Shown: piece after piece, positions 79 to 24,781 of the stretch | Numbering within the stretch: position 1 is the first letter of the stretch | How the letters are laid out: each line of letters opens with the position of its first letter | Virus record (IMG/VR): IMGVR_UViG_2802429253_000012 | Strand: one strand, 5' to 3' | From: a virus | Lineage: Duplodnaviria > Heunggongvirae > Uroviricota > Caudoviricetes | DNA: 36,901 nucleotides | Notes under the pieces: model-generated | What the model saw: the letters and a program-made list of their open reading frames with translations, nothing else | Told to the model about the DNA's origin: nothing | Database searches by the model: none | Translations under genes and position numbers: made by a program

Positions 79-121
79 CACCGCGCTCCGGATTTGATGA
101 TTGGGGATGCGTTCATTACAT

Positions 122-820
122 TTACTGCGAAAGTTTGTTAATGGAAAGGAAGCCGCCAAAGTTGCCGACGTTATTGCGGAACTTACAGCCACTCAGGCAT
201 TTGCTGCATTTATCCTTCGTGATATCGGACGTCGGCTGGTCATATTCATCCGCGACCGCCGGACCGCTATAACCGCACTCATCACCGCGATAGGTCCAGG
301 TGCAGGTGTTGGCCAGCATGATGCGCCCCGGAAAAACAGCACCATCCGTTTCCGTCGGCGTGGACAGCACAAAGGCCGCGCTAACCGCGTTCAGTTCGCT
401 GCACTGCTCGATGCGCCAGCGGCTGATCACCTCCTGCTCCGGATCGGCTTCGCTGTTTCCGTTGACGAAGTTCACCGCATCCAGAAAACGGGCGTAAACC
501 TTACGCCGGACCACCGTTCCGCCGACCAGACTCTGCAGATCTTCCGCCATCCCGGTGACCATGCCGTGCAGGTTTGATACCTTAAGTGTGGGACGTGCGC
601 TGCTGCCCTTACCGTTCATCTCAAAGCCGCTTCCCTGAATGGGGTACGCCTGATACTTTCGCCCCTGCCAGGTAACCGGTTCACCTTTTTCGTTCTGCTC
701 ATTGCAGAAAAAGTAACGCTCCCCACCGACCTCTGTCAGATCAATTTCCCAGAGCACCACGCTGGCCGACTGCTCCGCACGGATACATTCATTCAGTGTT
801 TCCTGTCGTATGTCCTGCAT
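122..820 (-). CDS. L: Minor tail protein L
   Basis: 232-aa ORF; translation closely matches my recollection of lambda gpL along its length, including the C-terminal Cys cluster. Confidence 0.9.
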   Translation of the reverse strand: MQDIRQETLNECIRAEQSASVVLWEIDLTEVGGERYFFCNEQNEKGEPVTWQGRKYQAYPIQGSGFEMNGKGSSARPTLKVSNLHGMVTGMAEDLQSLVGGTVVRRKVYARFLDAVNFVNGNSEADPEQEVISRWRIEQCSELNAVSAAFVLSTPTETDGAVFPGRIMLANTCTWTYRGDECGYSGPAVADEYDQPTSDITKDKCSKCLSGCKFRNNVGNFGGFLSINKLSQ

Positions 821-1116
821 CAGATCACCACTTCGTCAAACTGACATGAAAAATCGGTATAGGTGATATGTTCTGTCGCTGACCACGTTCGACACACCAC
901 TCTGATTTTTCTGTTAATACCCGGCGGGCGCCAAAAAAAAGATTTATAGCCTCCATGCCGAGCCAGAAACAGTTCAAATGAATTACGTTCATTCGCCTCA
1001 ACCCTGAAATCACAGGTAAAAACACGCAGAGAATGATTAAGTCCGTTTGGGCTTCGTTGTTCATAACCATCGCCAAATCTTACAGTTTTTATCGATGGCT
1101 TATTTTCTGTTTTCAT
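820..1116 (-). CDS. M: Minor tail protein M
   Basis: ORF with lambda gpM-like motifs (VRFGDGY, HGGYKSF); ATG at 1116 preceded by GAGGA; alternative GTG start at 1158 overlaps the H stop. Confidence 0.8.
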   Translation of the reverse strand: MKTENKPSIKTVRFGDGYEQRSPNGLNHSLRVFTCDFRVEANERNSFELFLARHGGYKSFFWRPPGINRKIRVVCRTWSATEHITYTDFSCQFDEVVI

Positions 1117-1150
1117 TCCATCCTCTGGTAACCAGTAAAATTCTTCCGTA

Positions 1151-4100
1151 TTAGCCACTTAACATTCCTCCATCACGTCGCATATTTAACAGAGCGCCCT
1201 GCACCCGCTGATCAACCATCCCCATAAGTGCTTTTATTGCCTGAGGACCAATCTCTCCATTCTGGCCGTCATTTTGAATAGTGATTTGGTATACAGGGGC
1301 ATAAGTAATATCTCTGCCTCCATTACCACTTTTACTATTAATAGCTCTGACACCAAGAGAACCATCGGAAGTTCGCGTTAATGGCATAATAGCTTCCGGT
1401 CCAGCCTCACCAAAAACACCAGCTCCTTTTGCAAAAGCAAAAAATTGCGGGGAGTCATAAATACCGTTCGAATATGTACTCAATGACGGAGACTCATAAA
1501 CACCGCCCTTTGCATTCGGAATAAATTTACTAATAGCACTCCCGATAGTTCCTAAAATACCCCCAGAAGAACTGTTACTAATGCTGTCGAAAATCCCAGT
1601 AATTGAAGCCTTTAATGCAATTCGACTAAGATCCGAAATCACGGAAGTAGCGAAAGAACGAAAATTTGCCTTGCCTGTCGTGACAAAATCACCTAGCGCA
1701 TCGGTCATCCCATCAAACATCTGAGTCGTGGTTGATTTTATCTGCGCACCGATATCCTTAGTGTCATCCAGCCAGTTATTGAATCCCTGGGAGGCACCAC
1801 TAATCCAGTCTCCTGCCTGAATATCGAGCTGCTCGTTTTTCTGGCTGACAATTTCTTTTTCTCGTTCCAGAGCATCATTCAGAGCCTGCATTTTCTCCTG
1901 AAAAACATGATTTGACATTCCACGGGATTTATCTGCATAGTCACGTTCAAGTTGCAGACGCTGATTGTTATATTCACGTTCAATCCGCAGTAATTCCTGC
2001 TGGCGTTGCTGATTTTTATCGCCAACCCCATAACCAGCAATCTGAATATCATACCCCTGCTGACGATTATCAATCGAAGCCTGCAATGAATCACGCCATG
2101 CGGCTATTTCGGCGGATTCTTTGATTAGCCTGCTATTTTTTTCAATCGCAACATTTTTCTCCATCAACGCGGTTATTTCTTCCCGGTGTAAGAGAAGTGA
2201 TTTCTGCTCTTGGGTTAATTTCGATGACGGTCGTGACTCTAGGTCGGCAATCTGCTGACGCCACTTAACCAGTTCCTGTTCAGAGGAACTTAATTTAACG
2301 GTCAATTCAGCTTGTGAACTTAGTAACGCATTCTGTTGATTCAGATGATCAATCATTCGTTGGGCAGCATCATCCGAATAACCTTTCGCCTTTGGTTGCT
2401 TTGGATCTTTATAACGCTCATTTATTTGAGCGATAAGATTATTATATTCTTCCTTTGAATACTGATTCTTTAGCTTTTCCAGTTTTGCAAGTTCACTAGC
2501 TCTCTGCTGCTCCCGGGTCTGATATTGTTTTGAAAAAGCATCTGCTCTCTGTCTGAGTTCAATTCCTTCCTGTTGTCGCTTGTTGTAATCGTTTATTGAT
2601 GAATTTAGTACGTCCTGAGCAATTTTTTCTGCTTGAAGTACGCCCAATTGCTGCTTTAATCGTGCCAGCTTTTTATTTTGAGCTCCGCCATCTCCAATGC
2701 CACCTAACCCGAAAACTCCGGGTCGGGTATTTTTTTCTATTTCATCAATTTGACGGAGAACATCTGAGATTTTTTGATCAAGGGAGGCCTCACGGCCAAT
2801 ATCCAGCATGGAATCCCATGCCCATTTTGCGGAGTCTGCGACAGCTTTCCATGCAGTCTCAAGATAACCAAGATTTTCTTTAATCTGGTTGGTGCGCTGG
2901 ATCATTGAGGATGAGTATGCTTCTGTCGCAATGCGGGCGGCCTCCTGCTGGTTCCCTTCATCCTGTAGCGCCTTAATTTGGTTATAAGTCGCAAGTGTCA
3001 GAAAATGGTACTGATCATTAAGTTTTGATATAGCACTGACAGGATCCTTTGCAATTTCATTGAAGTCATTAACCAGTTGTTCGGTTGATATTCCTGTTAC
3101 TTCGCTCGTTTTTACTATCGCTGTCGTCACTTGCTCCAGCGAACTGCTCGCTACCTTTCCCGAACGCACAAGCTGGTTTAATACTGCCGCCGCAGCGCCA
3201 GTTGTCGAATCAGCCGCATTCCCGGCACGTTGAGCTATATCGGCCAATTGCCCGCTGGTTGTCCCCAACTGATTTCCGGTAAGAATAAGAGATTTATTAA
3301 ATTCGTCCTGCTCCTGAGAGCCTTTATAGTAAGCCAGTCCTAAGACCCCAACGGCTGCTGCGGCCAGGGTAAAAGGATTAACTAATCCCAGCACATAAGA
3401 ACCTACACCTTTGATCGCCGGGCCAATCCCACCGAACATATCTTTTAGCTGGCCGCCCTGCTGCATTAACACCATAAATGGCGACTGACCAGTGGACAAC
3501 CCAACAACAATATCCGTCATTTGTGCAGGCAACATGCGCATAGCAAAAGCCGTTTGTTTTGCCGACATTCCGGTTTTGCTTAATTGTGATTGAGTAACCT
3601 CAAGCTCACTCCGCATAGCACGAAGTTTTCCAGAAAGCTCCTCATACATTTCAGGAGAAAGCATCCCCTTAGCTTTTGCTTCATTGAGCTGTTTCTGTTG
3701 TTCTACCAGACGATTAAAAGCAGTTCCGACAGGATCAAGTTGAGCAATCAGACGTTGCAAAGCAACAACCTGTTCATCATGCGCTTTTGCTGCTTCTCGC
3801 TCTGCCTGAGCCTCTCCGGTAAGCTCTCGCCGTGTTTCCTGTATTTTTCGGCTATAATTCTCAAACTGAGAACCATTTATTTTCCCGGATGCAAACGCAG
3901 CATTAAGTTCATCATGCTGTTGTTCAAGATTTCTTAGCGCCGCAGCCAGAGGGTCGATCTTGTCCAGCATTCTTTGAAAGGCCTGAGCCTGCGCTTCCTG
4001 CTGGGCGGCAGCAAGTTTTCCGGCCTTCTCGGCTTCTCTCTGCGCTTGCGCAACCCCGCTCAATTCCTCTGTGGTTTCATTAAGTTTACGGACAAGAAAT

Positions 4101-4384
4101 TCATATTCTTCTTTATCAATAAGCCCTTTATCGAAAAATTTCTTTAATTCAGAATAGCGTCGACCGACAGTATCAATTGCGGCACCAACTGGATCAATAG
4201 CTGCTTTTAATTTTGCGAGCGCGTTCTTCTCATCTTCTGTTGCCTTAGTCACTTTCCCTGCGCTATTTGCAGCAGTTTTCCCAGCCTGCGTCATTTTGAC
4301 TAATGAGGAGGTCAGATTGTCAGCATTATTTTTCGCTCCAGTGCTATCAATAATTATTGCGAGACGCGAGGTTTGCTCTGCCAT
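1151..4384 (-). CDS. H: Tail tape measure protein
   Basis: 1077-aa ORF, coiled-coil-rich N-terminal two thirds and Gly-rich C-terminus, located between T and M as in lambda. Confidence 0.9.
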
Positions 4385-4400
4385 TTATTAAAACTCCTGA

Positions 4401-4427
4401 CAACAAAAAACCCACCGAAGTGGGTTT
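4401..4427 (-). terminator. Intrinsic terminator-like hairpin between T and H (stem aaacccac/gtgggttt, loop of 4, then U-rich run on the minus-strand transcript)
   Basis: Read directly from sequence; lies inside a 163-nt T-H gap and immediately upstream of the H RBS (caggag). Confidence 0.45.
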
Positions 4428-4547
4428 CAGGCGACATAATAGTAGATATAGCGATTACGAGGTCACGCAATGCTTTTCTCCAGGAGCATCATCGATTTAA
4501 TTAAAGACACCATCACATCTCTGTAACAGAGTGTACGTAATTAACAA

Positions 4548-4868
4548 CTACACACACTGCTCCTGAAAATACTGGTCATCCAGTGCAAAGATCACTGCTT
4601 CAAATTCATCGCGCTCAATCAATACCGGATGAGTGGCTAAATATTCATTTATCTCTGTCAGAGATAAAGGCAAAGGCACCCCAGTCATTCCAGCATAACG
4701 TCGGGCACGGGATATTACCGAATAGGCGTACAACAATTCCTTAAGCACCGGGTCTATTTCTGGTTCCGGTATCGGTGGCAACCTGAGTTTTTCTCGCTTC
4801 CATCTTGCCTTTTCCCCCCTTTCTCCCCCGAACTCCGATAACCACCGTTGGGCGGCTATGGCTTTTTT
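4548..4868 (-). CDS. T: T-specific extension of tail assembly chaperone G-T, reached by -1 frameshift from G
   Basis: The -1 frame from the slippery site at 4862-4868 runs stop-free into the 4548..4781 ORF; traced codon by codon. Confidence 0.7.
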   Translation of the reverse strand, partial: KKAIAAQRWLSEFGGERGEKARWKREKLRLPPIPEPEIDPVLKELLYAYSVISRARRYAGMTGVPLPLSLTEINEYLATHPVLIERDEFEAVIFALDDQYFQEQCV

Positions 4869-5305
4869 ATCGTATCCTGCTTCTGCTGCTCTTTACCCTG
4901 GGCGATGCTGGCTGCTTCTGCAAGGATCTGCCAGTACAACTCTGGATTCTGCCTAAGCAGCGCGATCCCTCGTTCTGGCGTATATTCCAGTGCAACCTCA
5001 ACACCATTAACCAGTTCACCAACCCCTTTCCAGTCTTTCAGCAGATAACGAGCGGCATTATCAATGAGTAAATCATCAACAGAATCCACCTCGGAAACCT
5101 TTGAAATATCAAACTCCTTCGTTCCGACGTGCAAACTGGCATCCATTTTCTCAATGTGGCGACGGATTAATGCATTACGGGAGCGATACTGATCGTTATC
5201 GCTGCTTGCCACCAACAGTTTTAACCCGTCTACAGGTTTTAAGTCCTTCATTGGCGTAAACCAGCGTTCTCCACCGATGATAATTTTCTGATTAAGAATA
5301 AACAT
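4856..5305 (-). CDS. G: Tail assembly chaperone G
   Basis: ORF with lambda gpG-like N-terminus (MFILNQKIIIGG vs lambda MFLKTESFEHNG); GAGG 6 nt upstream of the ATG at 5305; sits between V and T. Confidence 0.8.
   Translation of the reverse strand: MFILNQKIIIGGERWFTPMKDLKPVDGLKLLVASSDNDQYRSRNALIRRHIEKMDASLHVGTKEFDISKVSEVDSVDDLLIDNAARYLLKDWKGVGELVNGVEVALEYTPERGIALLRQNPELYWQILAEAASIAQGKEQQKQDTIKKP
4862..4868 (-). other. Programmed -1 ribosomal frameshift slippery heptamer A_AAA_AAG, four codons before the G stop
   Basis: Minus-strand sequence acg ata aaa aag cca tag; after a -1 slip the frame reads gcc ata gcc gcc ... into the T ORF without stops. Confidence 0.65.
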
Positions 5306-5365
5306 CCATAACCTCATTCAATGCGTCCCCCTGTAGTGCAGTACCACAGGGGGAATAACGGAAAA

Positions 5366-6328
5366 TCAACTAATCGCCTCAGCACTGGCTTTTGCGATCA
5401 CGGCAGCCGGAGAGTTTTTTTTTCTGGTTATCGTAGGTGCTTCATCTGCTGCGGTAATGCTCAATTGAACCTGGATAATGTCGGTATTACCCCCATCAGG
5501 CCATTCACCTGACACCTGAACCTTCGGGAAACTGAAAGTGTATGCCCCCTCTCCATTCGAAAGCGTGAAGCTGAACGGAACTGTTTCTCCAGTCAGTGTT
5601 TTACTCCAGATTTCCCATGCAGCTTTAGACCATGAAAGCGTCACCGTACCGGACGGTGTAAAAGTAGTCGGAATATTTGCTCCTGCATAAGGCGAGCCAG
5701 TCCCGATACAACGCTGTGTCTGGAGTTTGTTATCGAACTGAATATCAAAACTGTCGATACAAAAACCGTTACCTCCGGCAACACCATTCAGGCTTACTGC
5801 TGAAACCTCCTTAAACGAATAACGTAGCTTTCCTGCACTATCCACAGGTTCGCCTTTGATAAAATTCGTATCATCGGCCTTTGATTCCCAGTCCAGTCCG
5901 GCAAAGGTTACGGTCGCTGTAATATCGCCGTCGTTAGGGATCTGCATTTTCCATGAGCCAACCTGCGCTCCTCTGACGACAGAGGCAATTCCGACATCGG
6001 ACGCATAGGTCGCCAGAGAAAATGTTATTCGCTCATTCCCCATTGTCAGAGAATCGCCTGACCATTCCGCGCCGAAACAGGATGCAAGAAAATCATCATG
6101 TTGACCCCAGCGAAATTTGGTACCAACATCACCGCCGACATCCACAGTGCCAGGCGTCGCCCCCTGAGCCATCCGGGAGCCACCAATCTCATTATTTTCG
6201 CCTTTATTCTGGGTGGGTTTTACTCCCCAGCTTGTGCGTTTTAATAAACTCCAGTCACCACTTGCTGGCGTAGTGCCTGCAACCGTCTCCCGGATAAATG
6301 CCGAGATAACCTTTGCACCTGAACTCAC
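5366..6328 (-). CDS. Major tail (tube) protein, V-like
   Basis: 320-aa ORF immediately upstream of G on the same strand; longer than the 246 aa I recall for lambda V; assigned by synteny. Confidence 0.7.
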   Translation of the reverse strand: MSSGAKVISAFIRETVAGTTPASGDWSLLKRTSWGVKPTQNKGENNEIGGSRMAQGATPGTVDVGGDVGTKFRWGQHDDFLASCFGAEWSGDSLTMGNERITFSLATYASDVGIASVVRGAQVGSWKMQIPNDGDITATVTFAGLDWESKADDTNFIKGEPVDSAGKLRYSFKEVSAVSLNGVAGGNGFCIDSFDIQFDNKLQTQRCIGTGSPYAGANIPTTFTPSGTVTLSWSKAAWEIWSKTLTGETVPFSFTLSNGEGAYTFSFPKVQVSGEWPDGGNTDIIQVQLSITAADEAPTITRKKNSPAAVIAKASAEAIS

Positions 6329-15117: not shown

Positions 15118-15369
15118 TTAGTCCTGATTTTTATCCACCCTGAGTAGTTCGCGCAGAGCAAAGGCATCCCCTTTTCTGGCAAGCTTAAACAATGCCGCTC
15201 GTAACTCGGCTTCACCTTTCGCTCTGCCCTTACGGATGGCCGCATAAAAATCTGTCATTGCTTCCCGATTTTCTTTCAGTCGGTTCAGATCAACATCCAG
15301 AACGTCAGCGATTTGTTGTGCAGTCATCCGGCACGCTGCCAGAGACTCGACTTTCGAATACGGAATCAT
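15118..15369 (-). CDS. Small HTH-like protein upstream of TerS (start uncertain; could be 15327 or 15258)
   Basis: 83-aa ORF whose stop lies 4 nt from the TerS start; overlaps the 3-prime 65 nt of the upstream gene in another frame; AGGGGTGA upstream of the 15369 start. Confidence 0.4.
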   Translation of the reverse strand: MIPYSKVESLAACRMTAQQIADVLDVDLNRLKENREAMTDFYAAIRKGRAKGEAELRAALFKLARKGDAFALRELLRVDKNQD

Positions 15370-16237
15370 TTGTCACCCCTATTGATATGCAGGGTGTCTT
15401 CTTCCTGTATTTTTCGTGAAGGATTTTTACTGCAGCGTTGTTCCAGGTGACCTGATGGTGAATGCGTTTATGGCTGGCACCCATCAGTGAGATTTTTACG
15501 CACGACGGCGCATACATGACGGAGTAAAAACTTTTAACGTAGGTTCCGGAATCCAGATACAGCTCGGTCATTCCGCCGCTGTTTTTCTGCGTCTGTTTCT
15601 GCCCTAACTGGACAGCACCGATCGTCATAAACAATTCACCACAGCGACCGAGATTCGTGTACGTATTCACATCCTCGTTAATGCGCCCCATGAATGAGAA
15701 CGGTCGATCAACCGAACAGATAAAGCTGTTCATTGCCTTGCGTTTCACCCACGAAGCATGGCCGCCATTGTCACCAAGAAAATCCCCGCCCTGCGACATA
15801 GCGATGGAAAGAGCAGGTATTGATTCGTAGTACGCCAGCATTTCAGAAAGGATCGCATCCAGTTTCCTTATCGGAAAATAGGCCTGGTCATAGTTGCGAT
15901 CCACCCGAAACTGGAACTCGTGATAATCATCATCGAGCTGAATGAAGTATTTACACCCGACCAGTTTTGCCAGGTCGAAACAGGCATTACGGGCGTAAAA
16001 AATTGAGCGGCGGTCACCGAAATTATCGGCTTCGTCAAAACGACTGGCGATATCGGCTTTGGAAAACACCAGCACCTGTTCACCAAATTCAGCCATGTAC
16101 TGATGCCGTGTCTTATCTTCATCATCAACAACGATAAAAATTTTCCCGGTATAGCCAGCACGACGCAACGTCCGGTAAGTCAGAACTTTGTCCGGTCGCC
16201 CGTGAGTCAGAATAAAGGCGCAAAAATCATCACGCAT
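15305..16237 (-). CDS. Hypothetical protein with GT-A glycosyltransferase-like features (DDED and LDDDY acidic motifs); product unverified
   Basis: 310-aa ORF from the ATG at 16237 with GGAGGAGGA RBS; start overlaps the ParB-like stop in the string ATGCGTGA; beta-strand/acidic motif pattern is my inference only. Confidence 0.6.
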   Translation of the reverse strand: MRDDFCAFILTHGRPDKVLTYRTLRRAGYTGKIFIVVDDEDKTRHQYMAEFGEQVLVFSKADIASRFDEADNFGDRRSIFYARNACFDLAKLVGCKYFIQLDDDYHEFQFRVDRNYDQAYFPIRKLDAILSEMLAYYESIPALSIAMSQGGDFLGDNGGHASWVKRKAMNSFICSVDRPFSFMGRINEDVNTYTNLGRCGELFMTIGAVQLGQKQTQKNSGGMTELYLDSGTYVKSFYSVMYAPSCVKISLMGASHKRIHHQVTWNNAAVKILHEKYRKKTPCISIGVTNDSVFESRVSGSVPDDCTTNR

Positions 16238-17021
16238 ATTCCTCCTCCTCACCACCATGCATGATCTCCACCATGCGCTGCGTCATCCGGACAAATCCAT
16301 TTTCAATAGCCTGCTGATAATCAATGATCACCAGCGCCGACTCCTCGAAAAAACACTGAATTTCAGCGGGGGCGTGAGCGTAATAGTCCGCAATTCTGCT
16401 GAAATTAAACACCGTGTGACGTTCTGCCGCACACAGGAGGAATTTCTCAATATCAGGCTCAAGAGACGCCGAACGTATCCGGCTGATCAGCTCCTGAGTT
16501 TTCGTATCGTCGTACAGTTCACTGATATCCGGTTTACCGCCCGACGGCTCATAAACAGGCGTATCAATTTTCGTCGTATACGGCTCCTCCTCATTTTCTG
16601 TACCTGGCAAAACATCCGTCAACAGTTCATCAATTTCTGTCGGGCTGAAGCCTGTCAGGGAGACATCAAAATCAGCATTGATTAGGTCCGACAGCTCCAT
16701 CCGTAACAGATCTTCATCCCAGCCAGCATTCATCGGCAGGCGATTATCTGCCAGGCGGTACGCCTTTTTCTGATCATCCATCAAACCAGACAGAACGATG
16801 ACCGGAATGGAATCCATTTTGAGCACTTCAGCCGCCATAACGCGACCGTGACCAGCAATAATTTCGCCCTTTTCATCAATCAGCACCGGATTAGTCCAGC
16901 CGAATTGCTTAATGCTTTCTACCAGTTGTGCCACCTGCTCAGGGCTGTGTGTCCTGGCGTTGTGTGCATACGGAGACAGTTCTTGTAAAGGGCGATAGAC
17001 GATCTTCAATTTCTCGCTCAT
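16230..17021 (-). CDS. ParB-like nuclease domain protein
   Basis: 263-aa ORF; N-terminal region (YRPLQELSPYAHNARTH ... IIAGHGR) matches the ParB/sulfiredoxin N-terminal domain pattern; acidic C-terminal tail. Confidence 0.75.
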   Translation of the reverse strand: MSEKLKIVYRPLQELSPYAHNARTHSPEQVAQLVESIKQFGWTNPVLIDEKGEIIAGHGRVMAAEVLKMDSIPVIVLSGLMDDQKKAYRLADNRLPMNAGWDEDLLRMELSDLINADFDVSLTGFSPTEIDELLTDVLPGTENEEEPYTTKIDTPVYEPSGGKPDISELYDDTKTQELISRIRSASLEPDIEKFLLCAAERHTVFNFSRIADYYAHAPAEIQCFFEESALVIIDYQQAIENGFVRMTQRMVEIMHGGEEEEYA

Positions 17022-17158: not shown

Positions 17159-18616
17159 TTAGGAGCGCCAAAAAAAACCTGAAAACAATATAATAACAGG
17201 ATAAATTTCAAGGCGACCAAGAATCATAGCTATGCACATTAAATATTTTGCAATGTCATTAAGCACTCCGAATGACGATGCAGTAGCCCCAAAACCTAAT
17301 CCCATATTATTAATACATGCAGCCACTGTTGCAAATGATGTAAGAAAATCATATCCCATACCATTTAACACCAGTATAAAAAACACCGTGAAGAGAGTAT
17401 AAAGAAAAAAGAAACTCCATACAGACCTCATTACACGATCTGTAACTATCTTCCCTCCTACATTTACACTCAACAACGCTCTGGGATGAGAAAGCTGGTT
17501 TATCTCGTGTTTGCTTTGTTTGAAAAGTATAAGAAATCGAAGTGATTTAATTCCACCACAAGTTGAACCTATACATCCCCCAAAGAAACTTGACAACAGC
17601 AAAAACACTATCGTGTGCGTGGGCCAGTTTGCATAATCCTGCGTAGCTAAACCATTATCAGTGAGCATGGAGCTGGCAAGAAAAAACGAATGAATAAAAC
17701 TTCCAGGCAAGTCATACATACCTATATGCCAGACCTGGAAAGAGGTAACAATGATCACCCCTAAGGCTATTAACAGAAAGAAACGAAGTTCAATATCTCT
17801 GATTAAAGGTTTTAACGTTTTCCTGCTAATAACAATATACCAAAGGGTGAAGTTGAAAGCCGATAGCAGGGAAAAAGAACCAGCCACCAGCTCAACCAAA
17901 TAGTTATTAAAATATCCGATACTCTCGCTATGAGTTGAGAAACCACCAAGCGAAACTGTGGAAATCCCGTGACAAATAGCATCAAACAAAGGCATTCCTG
18001 CAAGTCTATAACAGACAATACAAGCAATACCTAATAAAGAATAAGTTATCCACAGTGTCCGTGACGTATCGGCCAGGCGGGGAGTGAGTTTGTCATCCTT
18101 AAATGGCCCCGGCATTTCTGACTGATAAAGCTTTGCACCACCAATACCCAATAATGGCAATACAGCAACCGCCAGAACAATAACTCCTAAACCACCTATA
18201 AAATTTAACTGTGACCGATAGTACAAATATGCCCGAGGTAATGAACTAACATCATCAATTACAGTTGCTCCTGTTGTTGTTATTCCAGAAACCCCTTCAA
18301 ACAGAGCATCAATGAACGTTAAATTAAGTTCTGAGTCAATCCATAAAGGGAATGCACTAATAACAGAAAACAAAATCCAAAACATTACAATTATAATAAA
18401 CCCATCACGGGTACGTAATTGAATGCCAGATTTCTTAGTTGTATACCACGCTCCGCCCCCAATGCAAAAAAATATAACGAAAGTTATAAAGAAAACGAAC
18501 AGGCTTTTTTCTTTATAAAACAATGCTACAACCATTGGTGGCAACATTGAAAGACTATAGAGCCAAACCAGGAACCCACACATATGAGTAACAACTCTTA
18601 CATGAGATGTATTCAT
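17159..18616 (-). CDS. trkG: TrkG/TrkH-family potassium uptake membrane protein
   Basis: 485-aa multi-pass hydrophobic ORF starting MNTSHVRVVTHMCGF, as I recall for E. coli TrkG; visibly AT-rich relative to flanking phage genes. Confidence 0.85.
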   Translation of the reverse strand: MNTSHVRVVTHMCGFLVWLYSLSMLPPMVVALFYKEKSLFVFFITFVIFFCIGGGAWYTTKKSGIQLRTRDGFIIIVMFWILFSVISAFPLWIDSELNLTFIDALFEGVSGITTTGATVIDDVSSLPRAYLYYRSQLNFIGGLGVIVLAVAVLPLLGIGGAKLYQSEMPGPFKDDKLTPRLADTSRTLWITYSLLGIACIVCYRLAGMPLFDAICHGISTVSLGGFSTHSESIGYFNNYLVELVAGSFSLLSAFNFTLWYIVISRKTLKPLIRDIELRFFLLIALGVIIVTSFQVWHIGMYDLPGSFIHSFFLASSMLTDNGLATQDYANWPTHTIVFLLLSSFFGGCIGSTCGGIKSLRFLILFKQSKHEINQLSHPRALLSVNVGGKIVTDRVMRSVWSFFFLYTLFTVFFILVLNGMGYDFLTSFATVAACINNMGLGFGATASSFGVLNDIAKYLMCIAMILGRLEIYPVIILFSGFFWRS

Positions 18617-18753
18617 ATCTAAATATTCTTTCAATTATAACCACCTTGCTGCAATATTATGATTATACTGTATAAAATTTAACTCCTCTTAGATCTTACT
18701 TCACTGTTCCTTATGAAACAATCATCAAAATGAATCATATTGTAGTTAAGATT

Positions 18754-20704: not shown

Positions 20705-20779
<75 letters not shown>

Positions 20780-20782
20780 ATA

Positions 20783-20858
<76 letters not shown>

Positions 20859-23106: not shown

Positions 23107-23262
23107 TTACTCCTCAGGTTCGTAAGCTGTGAAGACAGCGACCTCCGTCTGCCCGGTTCGGATTCGTACCTCGCAGAGGTCTTTCCTCGTTACCAGTGCC
23201 GTCACTATGACGGTTAAACAGATGACGATCAGGGCGATTAACATCGCCTTTTGCTGCTTCAT
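23107..23262 (-). CDS. hok: Hok/Gef-family type I toxin
   Basis: 51-aa frame MKQQKAMLIALIVICLTVIVTALVTRKDLCEVRIRTGQTEVAVFTAYEPEE matches the Hok family along its length; AAGGAG RBS; in-frame 19-codon upstream extension (mok-like) to 23319. Confidence 0.85.
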   Translation of the reverse strand: MKQQKAMLIALIVICLTVIVTALVTRKDLCEVRIRTGQTEVAVFTAYEPEE

Positions 23263-23499
23263 AGCCTGCTTCTCCTTGCCTTTCGGCACGTAAGAGGCTA
23301 ACCTACATGTGTTCAGCATAGATTGAGCCTCAGATTAATGTTAAGCGTCTTGCAGGACGCGTAATGTTAACTGGGGCTTTTCTCTATCTGCCTTTTGGTG
23401 TTCATGCCTGAGGCAGATAGCCTCAAGCACCCGCAGCAATTTTACTTAACTCCCGCTACCTCGCCAATATGAAATCAATAAGAAAGGTGCTCCATAAAA

Positions 23500-24186
23500 T
23501 CACTCCTTCTCTTCTTTACCGTAGTGGAGTTGACCAATTTTGATAAGAGGGCGTCCCTGAGATTTGCGGTGTAGATTGGTATCGCGCAGAGAATACACAC
23601 AGCCACAATATTCCTGCTGATAGAATTTTTCGCGCTTGCTGATTTCAATCATGCGGGACGAGCCGCCCTGCTTGCGCCAGTTATAATCCCAGTACACCAT
23701 GCCCGGATAATGCGCGACGGCTCGCCGCCCACAGTCGTTAACCTGCTGCATATTTTTCCAGCGTGAAATGCCCAGTGAACTGCTGATCACACTGAAACCA
23801 TTTTCAGCAGCGTACAGCGCTGTCCGCTCAAAACGCATGTCAAAACACATGGTACAACGGATCCCCCTCTCGGGCTCCCATTCCATTCCTTTGGCACGTT
23901 CAAACCAGTTGTCTGTGTCGTAATCAGCATCAATAAATGGCACGCCGTGTTGTTCAGCAAAGCGAATATTCTCATCCTTACGAATTAAATACTCTTTCTG
24001 AGGATGAATGTTCGGGTTGTAGAAAAAGATGGTATAGTCGATTCCCGAGGCCTGAAGCGCCTCCATCACTTCACCGGAACATGGAGCACAGCAAGAGTGC
24101 AGTAGTAGTTTGTTTGCCCCGTTTGGGAGCTCCAATTTAGGCCGTTTGAAATCAGCAATAGTCATAAATATTTTTATTGGGGTCAT
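23500..24186 (-). CDS. QueH-like (DUF208) putative Fe-S epoxyqueuosine reductase homologue
   Basis: 228-aa ORF with motifs [28 protein letters not shown] and C-terminal YCGCVYS that I recall as characteristic of DUF208/QueH; no obvious SD at either candidate start. Confidence 0.55.
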
Positions 24187-24349
24187 GAAAATAGCACAGA
24201 GTGTAGCATCAGAGCAGGGCTATCGGGAATAGATGTCTAAATCTGGTAATATCTGCTTTTGACACAAAGCAGACAACCACGCTAGCTCAATCCTGTGCCG
24301 TGAAAATGTCAATTCACATCTGAACTAATGCTCTTTAATCGAGTAACGT

Positions 24350-24766
24350 CTATAAATAACGAAAATTTCTCTGATAAAATGCCAGTATGCGCTGCATAAC
24401 TTCGCTCTTCCGGCACTCACAGCAAATTATGTTTTGGTGCCTGTCATAACGACGTATTTCTCCGTCAGGTAATGACCAGATAAGGTCCGGATCAACCACA
24501 GATGGTTTCTTCACCTTTGCCCTAGATAGTTTTTTGCGGGCATTTTGCCAGTCCTTACGAGCCTGTTCAGACGGGAATAACCCGTAGCCAGAGTTGTATA
24601 CATCGCCACTGGCAACCAGCTCTCTGGCGAGAACGCTCATCAGATATCTTGTCGCACCTGTCTTGGCTTCCAGTTGCCGTAACGTCTCGCGCCCACTCCG
24701 GCGTACTAGCTCAACAACCTGTCCCTTGATTTTTTCCCGCTCTTCTTGTGTAAATACTTTTGCCAT
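24350..24766 (-). CDS. Hypothetical HTH-like DNA-binding protein
   Basis: 138-aa frame from the ATG at 24766 with GGAGG RBS; central helix-turn-helix-like segment and C-terminal CCECR motif. Confidence 0.5.
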   Translation of the reverse strand: MAKVFTQEEREKIKGQVVELVRRSGRETLRQLEAKTGATRYLMSVLARELVASGDVYNSGYGLFPSEQARKDWQNARKKLSRAKVKKPSVVDPDLIWSLPDGEIRRYDRHQNIICCECRKSEVMQRILAFYQRNFRYL

Positions 24767-24781
24767 AAGCGCCTCCGGCAA

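Follow-up and report, generated by a model that had tools for sequence, protein, structure and literature searches.

The prophage and its cargo slot

The window, by which is meant the whole 36,901-nucleotide stretch of DNA analyzed here (IMG/VR virus record IMGVR_UViG_2802429253_000012), holds by annotation a complete Rac-like lambdoid prophage of Escherichia coli 042 integrated beside ttcA, and the region is 100% identical to the genome of that strain (NC_017626.1). The early modules comprise intR/xisR, recE/recT, kilR, sieB and cI/cro-like regulators, followed by ydaT/ydaU/ydaV, the DUF1627 and DUF977 genes, queH, hokD/sok and the DUF1367 and DUF1364 genes, then by a DUF1133 Q-like antiterminator gene, two tRNA genes, the lysis genes and trkG, with the late modules contributing a ParB-like gene, terminase and the head and tail genes. 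The strand of queH is that of the replication, Q, lysis and structural genes. It therefore belongs to the rightward early region, in agreement with the first-pass annotation, flanked by the replication genes and by the nin/Q region. Two further features of this stretch may be recorded here. The tRNA genes, for tRNA-Gly (UCC) and tRNA-Thr (UGU) (20705-20858, minus strand), separate the Q-like antiterminator from the lysis genes, with an additional tRNA-Ile in an ST131 relative, and the potassium transporter gene trkG (17159-18634, minus strand) is a second host-type cargo, flanked by the lysis genes and the ParB-like gene as it is in the Rac prophage of K-12.

The open reading frame on the minus strand at 23500-24186, which encodes 228 amino acids from its first ATG, is present as the first-pass annotation had described it, as are the two motifs, one of 17 residues and the other YCGCVYS, on which its identification had been based. 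The proposed start codon did not hold equally well. The first ATG (24186) reads ATT in the allele of an O7:H15 ST70 strain and the second (24165) is invariant; moreover, the chromosomal homologues (214-222 amino acids) align from the second ATG, which is also the start given in RefSeq, and the likely coding sequence is therefore 23500-24165 on the minus strand, with a product of 221 amino acids. No recognizable Shine-Dalgarno sequence precedes either ATG.

The gene lies within a cassette (23493-24281, minus strand) that stays homologous between strain 042, the phage HannyBb, strain 95-3322, and O157 and ST131 prophages despite their changed flanks, and that encloses a smaller universal core, running from about 60 nt before queH to a few nucleotides beyond its stop codon, found in every allele. 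Both neighbors in strain 042 fall outside the cassette: upstream is the DUF977 (YdaW/LygF-like) gene (24350-24781, minus strand), the last gene of the replication module, and downstream is the hokD/sok type I toxin-antitoxin locus (23107-23432, minus strand). Within the latter, hokD occupies 23107-23262 and the sok antitoxin RNA (Rfam, 119.6 bits) 23257-23432 on the minus strand, immediately downstream of queH, and the 5' end of hok/sok is found some 70 nt past the queH stop codon.

Among prophages the upstream flank may be DUF977, a methyltransferase remnant or a hypothetical gene, and the downstream flank hokD, an NgoMIV restriction-modification pair or a DUF1971 gene, while the phages mEp460 and Evi bear unrelated cargo in the same slot, between LygF/DUF977 and mokW/hok. 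As a discrete insert that is variably present and differently flanked, queH behaves as a moron in a cargo hotspot. Like other lambdoid morons, including bor, lom, stx and the restriction-modification and acetyltransferase genes of this same slot, it forms a discrete, variable cassette with varied flanks and probably a promoter of its own; those genes, however, encode virulence, exclusion or defense factors, whereas the cargo here is a housekeeping tRNA-modification enzyme. The cassette is moron-like, yet the scan for consensus promoters and terminators found no intrinsic terminator inside it or after queH. The GC content of queH (47-52%) is the same as that of its flanks and thus gives no compositional sign of recent foreign origin. 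A further case of cargo exchange at this slot is the E. coli O157:H7 Z1811 locus (positions 1806-3816 of locus L009), in which a DNA cytosine methyltransferase gene and an NgoMIV-family endonuclease gene replace hokD downstream of queH.

Family, fold and relatives of the encoded protein

The assignment of the protein to the QueH (DUF208) family, first proposed from its cysteine motifs, is borne out by a search of Pfam, in which PF02677 (QueH/DUF208) matched at 220.6 bits (E 1.9e-65), against a curated cut-off of 23.5 bits, over positions 1-174 of the 175 in the profile. No NCBIfam model matched the product, although PGAP names the gene QueH. Comparison with the sequences of the PDB returned the QueH structures of Thermotoga maritima as its only solved relatives, with 7LC5 matching at E 5e-22 and all six of the T. 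maritima cysteines aligned, where they pair with Cys25/26, Cys104/107 and Cys187/189 (numbering of the 221-residue product). When 27 homologues are aligned, neither these residues nor Cys29 vary, nor does much else of the sequence, and the six, arranged as CC..., CxxC and CxC, are also invariant across all prophage alleles. In T. maritima QueH the six cysteines reportedly hold a [4Fe-4S] cluster and an adjacent iron.

An AlphaFold2 model of the prophage protein (mean pLDDT 75.8, pTM 0.78) leads to the same family. Its best five matches in the PDB are all QueH (TM 0.83-0.87, normalized to the target; rmsd 2.7-2.8 Å), with a TM of 0.84 on superposition with the T. maritima enzyme, and the next structural matches, TtuA-type PP-loop proteins and others, follow only after a large gap, at E > 1e-4. 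The prophage protein shares with T. maritima QueH (7LC5, 7LC7, 9DEU) the full-length profile, the fold, the six cysteines and the FFYNPNI and YCGCV motifs, but the two are only about 30% identical, and the prophage protein is longer at either end, by some 19 residues at the N terminus and by a basic stretch of about 25 at the C terminus, extensions that are common to proteobacterial homologues. They differ also at Cys29, which aligns with T. maritima Asp13, the residue changed in the D13N mutant structure (9DCO). The CCAPC motif that includes Cys29 is found in most of the family members inspected, and since HSCCAPCS recurs in the chromosomal QueH proteins of Enterobacterales, in one of the S. 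aureus type and in one from a gut metagenome (about 35% identity), cysteine seems to be what the family commonly has at this position and Asp a Thermotoga variant, so that Cys29 does not seem to be a peculiarity of the phage. By profile, alignment and modeled fold, the gene of the 042 prophage is confirmed as an intact QueH, the known enzyme of the last step in the synthesis of queuosine on tRNA.

DNA of queH occurs in 995 of 5426 complete E. coli genomes (18%), nearly always as a single chromosomal copy, and its carriers include ST131, O157:H7 and the O104:H4 outbreak strain. In IMG/VR it is present in at least 190 viral contigs. The isolated phage HannyBb (PP925841.1, 33011-33697), which forms virions, encodes a protein of 95.6% amino acid identity annotated as a hypothetical protein, and was the sole record accepted from the phage collections, where most of the entries with QueH are not phages. 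'Acinetobacter phage MD-2021a' (CAKLQH020000001.1 and CAKLQF020000001.1; 328-378 kb) was set aside as a bacterial contig with soxR, cynX and tadA as neighbors, and 'Staphylococcus phage SA 1306 Kay' (OR844989.1, 283 kb, UNVERIFIED_ORG) looks like a contig of a bacterial chromosome. The QueH records of Staphylococcus and Listeria 'phages', which are UNVERIFIED contigs, and those of gut 'Bacteriophage sp.', which are short and unannotated, were likewise not counted.

Outside of E. coli, the nearest relatives are the chromosomal QueH proteins of the Enterobacterales (80-92% identity), with those of Scandinavium, Kluyvera and Enterobacter at 89-92% and those of Erwinia, Providencia, Serratia and Photorhabdus at 80-86%. 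These genes lie among housekeeping genes, for example with tmcA/purC in Providencia, in the order purL-queH-glrK in Erwinia and beside rluE-icd in Enterobacter, in contrast to the lambdoid cargo slot that queH occupies in a species with QueG in its core genome; among 80 species-representative loci, lambdoid neighbors of queH were seen in E. albertii only. In a neighbor-joining tree, built without bootstrap and thus indicative only, Kluyvera, Scandinavium and Enterobacter stand next to a single clade made up of the phage and prophage alleles. The prophage alleles differ from one another at dN/dS of 0.02-0.075, with dS reaching 0.45 and dN at most 0.023, from which it follows that queH has long been in the phage pool under strong purifying selection. 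Its source was apparently the chromosome of a member of the Enterobacteriaceae.

One locus bears on the direction of transfer. The chromosome of Enterobacter sp. ECC-175 (about 2600-5700 of locus L097) carries a 90%-identical queH two genes from icd, and icd is one of the classical sites at which lambdoid and e14-type prophages integrate in E. coli. The ECC-175 gene could therefore be a relic of delivery by a phage, and the transfer may have run in either direction.

Sequence upstream of queH

A putative extended -10 element, TGCTACACT (TGn plus TACACT; 24200-24208, minus strand), lies 34 nt upstream of the conserved start codon. The element, TGcTACACT, is invariant in all prophage alleles, in which the invariant stretch reads ATGCTACACT (24200-24209). 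Chromosomal Enterobacterales QueH, near-identical to the prophage protein in sequence and length, share this feature also, as TGCTACA(A/C)T at a similar distance from the start: in the chromosomes of Scandinavium, Kluyvera, three species of Enterobacter and Symbiopectobacterium, TGCTACAAT, TGCTACACT or TGCTACCCT stands about 33-35 nt before queH in surroundings that are otherwise different. A scan for consensus promoters reported nothing upstream of queH, the -10-like element falling below its threshold and having no good -35 partner. Nevertheless, a footprint common to prophage and chromosomal queH suggests that the phage captured the gene together with its native promoter, and TGcTACACT is probably that promoter. 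Being native to the gene, it would make expression possible in a repressed prophage.

Further upstream, the perfect inverted repeat reported in the first-pass annotation, TCTGCTTT-N6-AAAGCAGA, indeed sits at 24252-24273. It belongs to a hairpin (24244-24279, minus strand) with perfect 8-bp arms (24266-24273 and 24252-24259) and a 6-nt loop, located at the 5' edge of the segment common to different prophage backgrounds. The suggestion that it might be an operator fared less well, and it is improbable that the repeat regulates queH either as an operator or as an RNA hairpin. The case for regulation has some substance in the 042 allele, where the repeat is the core of an imperfect 14-bp stem (-16.5 kcal/mol, z = -5.0), where a weak promoter-like pair (TTGTCT-17-GATATT) would straddle it, and where the arms are perfect, as they are in HannyBb and strain 95-3322, despite a differing loop. 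Most other alleles, however, have lost the longer stem, and the repeat is perfect in just 9 of 81 loci surveyed, while the commonest allele (56 of 81) has two uncompensated changes in the arms, matching at 6 of 8 positions and folding at -6.8 kcal/mol (z = -0.6), and a further 16 of the 81 have unrelated sequence there, a GC-rich hairpin in place of the repeat. It is also missing from the ST70 allele, and in this allele and those 16 loci queH itself is intact and under selection.

Repeats of this kind are not rare, either. Inverted repeats with 8-bp arms and a 3-10 nt spacer match 16 times in the window (roughly 10 distinct sites once overlaps are merged), against 5.5 +/- 2.5 in Markov-shuffled sequence, so that about five per window are expected by chance. 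Inspection of the upstream region by eye found no match to LexA (CTGT-N8-ACAG), CRP or IscR-type sites, and the spacing of the repeat fits neither LexA nor CRP. With the perfect form kept at so few loci and several chance repeats per window, this is not a conserved operator, and it may instead be a local terminator-like or junction element. The hairpin that replaces it (CCGCCCGAAAGGGCGG; -18.6 kcal/mol with a second stem) stands directly upstream of the queH core in IMG/VR prophage contigs, and may insulate queH from upstream transcription.

These elements bear on when queH is expressed. It could be that the gene serves the phage mainly in lytic growth, transcribed with the delayed-early rightward operon, and that its product raises or secures queuosine at position 34 of host tRNAs so as to tune the translation of phage genes. 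This would involve the same enzyme and substrate as synthesis in the lysogen, from which it differs in timing and beneficiary and with which it overlaps. That queH shares the strand of the replication genes and the Q antiterminator, and lies between them, is in keeping with such a role, as are the 042 allele, in which no terminator parts the gene from those upstream, and the retention of queH in the virion-forming HannyBb; a preprint, moreover, describes infection of Shewanella by a phage that raises queuosine through induction of queG, which would make this step a node of phage-host interplay. The -10-like element shared with chromosomal queH nonetheless suggests transcription independent of the phage, the strong GC-rich hairpin just upstream in 16 of the 81 loci would tend to block read-through, and turnover of tRNA modifications within a single lytic cycle may be too slow. 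A mainly lytic role is, on balance, rather unlikely, although from its place in the rightward early operon queH would probably be active in lytic growth as well as in the lysogen.

A proposed role in queuosine synthesis

In the reading that we prefer, to which we would assign a probability of roughly three in four, queH encodes a functional enzyme and is a moron, acquired with its own promoter from an Enterobacteriaceae chromosome, that would give the lysogen a B12-independent route to queuosine. The prophage QueH, a cobalamin-independent iron-sulfur epoxyqueuosine reductase, would reduce epoxyqueuosine (oQ) to queuosine (Q) at position 34 of tRNA-Asp, tRNA-Asn, tRNA-His and tRNA-Tyr. Among lambdoid phages its gene occupies an interchangeable slot between the replication module and hok/sok, and its product would free the last step of Q synthesis in the lysogen from the supply of B12. 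Judged from sequence and models, the enzyme probably acts on host tRNA and is probably expressed from TGcTACACT; the benefit, probably the independence from B12, is conjecture. Of the two roles offered in the first-pass annotation, an effect on the queuosine status of host tRNA is the better supported, with activity inferred, and a 7-deazaguanine modification route, discussed below, is not supported.

E. coli makes no B12 de novo, and we know of no phenotype that separates oQ from Q. The host retains an intact queG (EC042_RS24780), so that the reduction of oQ is duplicated in this genome by two enzymes with different cofactor needs. QueG (YjeS), which depends on both cobalamin and a [4Fe-4S] cluster, catalyzes the same reaction as QueH but is unrelated in fold and cofactor, B12 being needed by QueG and not by QueH, its cobalamin-independent alternative. 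E. coli has four cobamide enzymes, QueG among them, and the reduction of oQ in E. coli and Salmonella is stated to need a cobamide (Payne 2015, citing Frey 1988). Because QueG needs B12, which E. coli cannot itself produce, a lysogen with the prophage enzyme would be able to complete Q without a supply of the vitamin. That a cell can retain two such enzymes is shown by Staphylococcus aureus, which naturally keeps both QueG and QueH, with differing patterns of expression.

A gene that is present in about a fifth of complete E. coli genomes, major pathogenic lineages among them, that is strongly conserved and that apparently came with its own promoter is very likely to be of some use to the lysogen or the phage. 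We hold more tentatively, as a possibility somewhat short of even, that queH is a lysogenic-conversion gene that alters the host epitranscriptome, with QueH made from its native promoter keeping tRNA fully modified with Q rather than oQ when cobamides are scarce, to the translational or fitness advantage of lysogen or phage. If true, the lysogens concerned would make up 18% of sequenced E. coli, and would include ST131, O157:H7 and O104:H4 strains. These would also offer a natural experiment, and a handle, on whether epoxyqueuosine and queuosine differ functionally and whether the availability of B12 shapes translation in enterobacteria.

The first-pass annotation had called a phage copy of queH unexpected, which is true of the literature and less so of the databases. 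No QueA, QueG or QueH homologues were found among the viruses analyzed by Hutinet et al. (2019), our search of the literature brought up no account of QueH in a phage or prophage, and PHROG 3217, which matches the protein at E 1.7e-138, is labeled 'unknown function'. In RefSeq, on the other hand, some 1000 complete E. coli genomes already have the gene under the name QueH. The enzyme is known and annotated, while its status as a widespread, conserved phage cargo seems to be undescribed in the searchable literature. That phages take over the early queuosine pathway to modify their DNA is established; the last, tRNA-specific step alone is what that literature does not describe, and this would, if the reading is right, be the first example among phages of a gene devoted to the queuosine-specific steps on tRNA. 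The name QueH can be given both to PHROG 3217 and to the gene of HannyBb. The profile of this PHROG begins at residue 34 of the protein, which suggests that its members have truncated gene calls.

Since the reaction of QueH looks redundant beside that of the host QueG and phage databases give the family no function, it might be supposed that the protein has been recruited to another job, such as anti-defense or a redox reaction on a substrate other than tRNA, or that the gene is a passive hitch-hiker. We regard this as very unlikely. The very strong purifying selection speaks against a passenger and the near-identity of the conserved residues to those of housekeeping QueH against a new substrate, PADLOC returned no match to any defense-system model, and S. 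aureus offers a parallel for two reductases with different cofactors in one cell.

Least likely is a place for QueH in a phage 7-deazaguanine pathway that modifies DNA or another nucleic acid against restriction, which we consider highly improbable. Phages do use enzymes of the queuosine and archaeosine pathways for DNA modification (Hutinet 2019), and the ParB-like and TAGT-like glycosyltransferase pair of the 042 prophage might modify DNA. The Dpd-type systems (DpdA with FolE, QueD, QueE and QueC; phages 9g, CAjan and others) likewise involve phage-borne genes of queuosine-pathway families, but combine the early pathway with a DNA transglycosylase, whereas the 042 prophage has the last, tRNA-specific step and no transglycosylase: the RefSeq annotation of the 41-kb region holds no DpdA/TGT-like gene and none of the preQ0 genes (FolE, QueD, QueE, QueC), and the sole large 'hypothetical' protein of the prophage is a TAGT-family glycosyltransferase, not a TGT. 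The oQ substrate of QueH itself requires the action of QueA on tRNA-bound preQ1, and we know of no epoxyqueuosine in DNA. In addition, the prophage QueH is 80-92% identical to housekeeping tRNA enzymes, and the prophage tRNAs (Gly-UCC and Thr-UGU) are not queuosine substrates themselves. The ParB/TAGT pair, 7 kb away in the late region, is missing from HannyBb and does not travel with queH; a functional link between the two was rejected because HannyBb has queH without TAGT.

A 317-residue protein that RefSeq calls hypothetical (within 15305-17021, minus strand) belongs to the TET-associated glycosyltransferase family (Pfam TAGT, E 6.5e-35) and also matches PHROG 842, 'beta-glucosyl-HMC-alpha-glucosyltransferase' (E 9e-104). 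No TET/JBP gene was found in the window. The TAGT gene overlaps a gene for a ParB_N-domain protein just upstream of the small terminase gene, and the same ParB and TAGT pair recurs at 40-47% identity in phages of Lactobacillus, Vibrio and Nocardia and in a tailed virus of Haloarcula, possibly as an uncharacterized module for the glycosylation of DNA bases.
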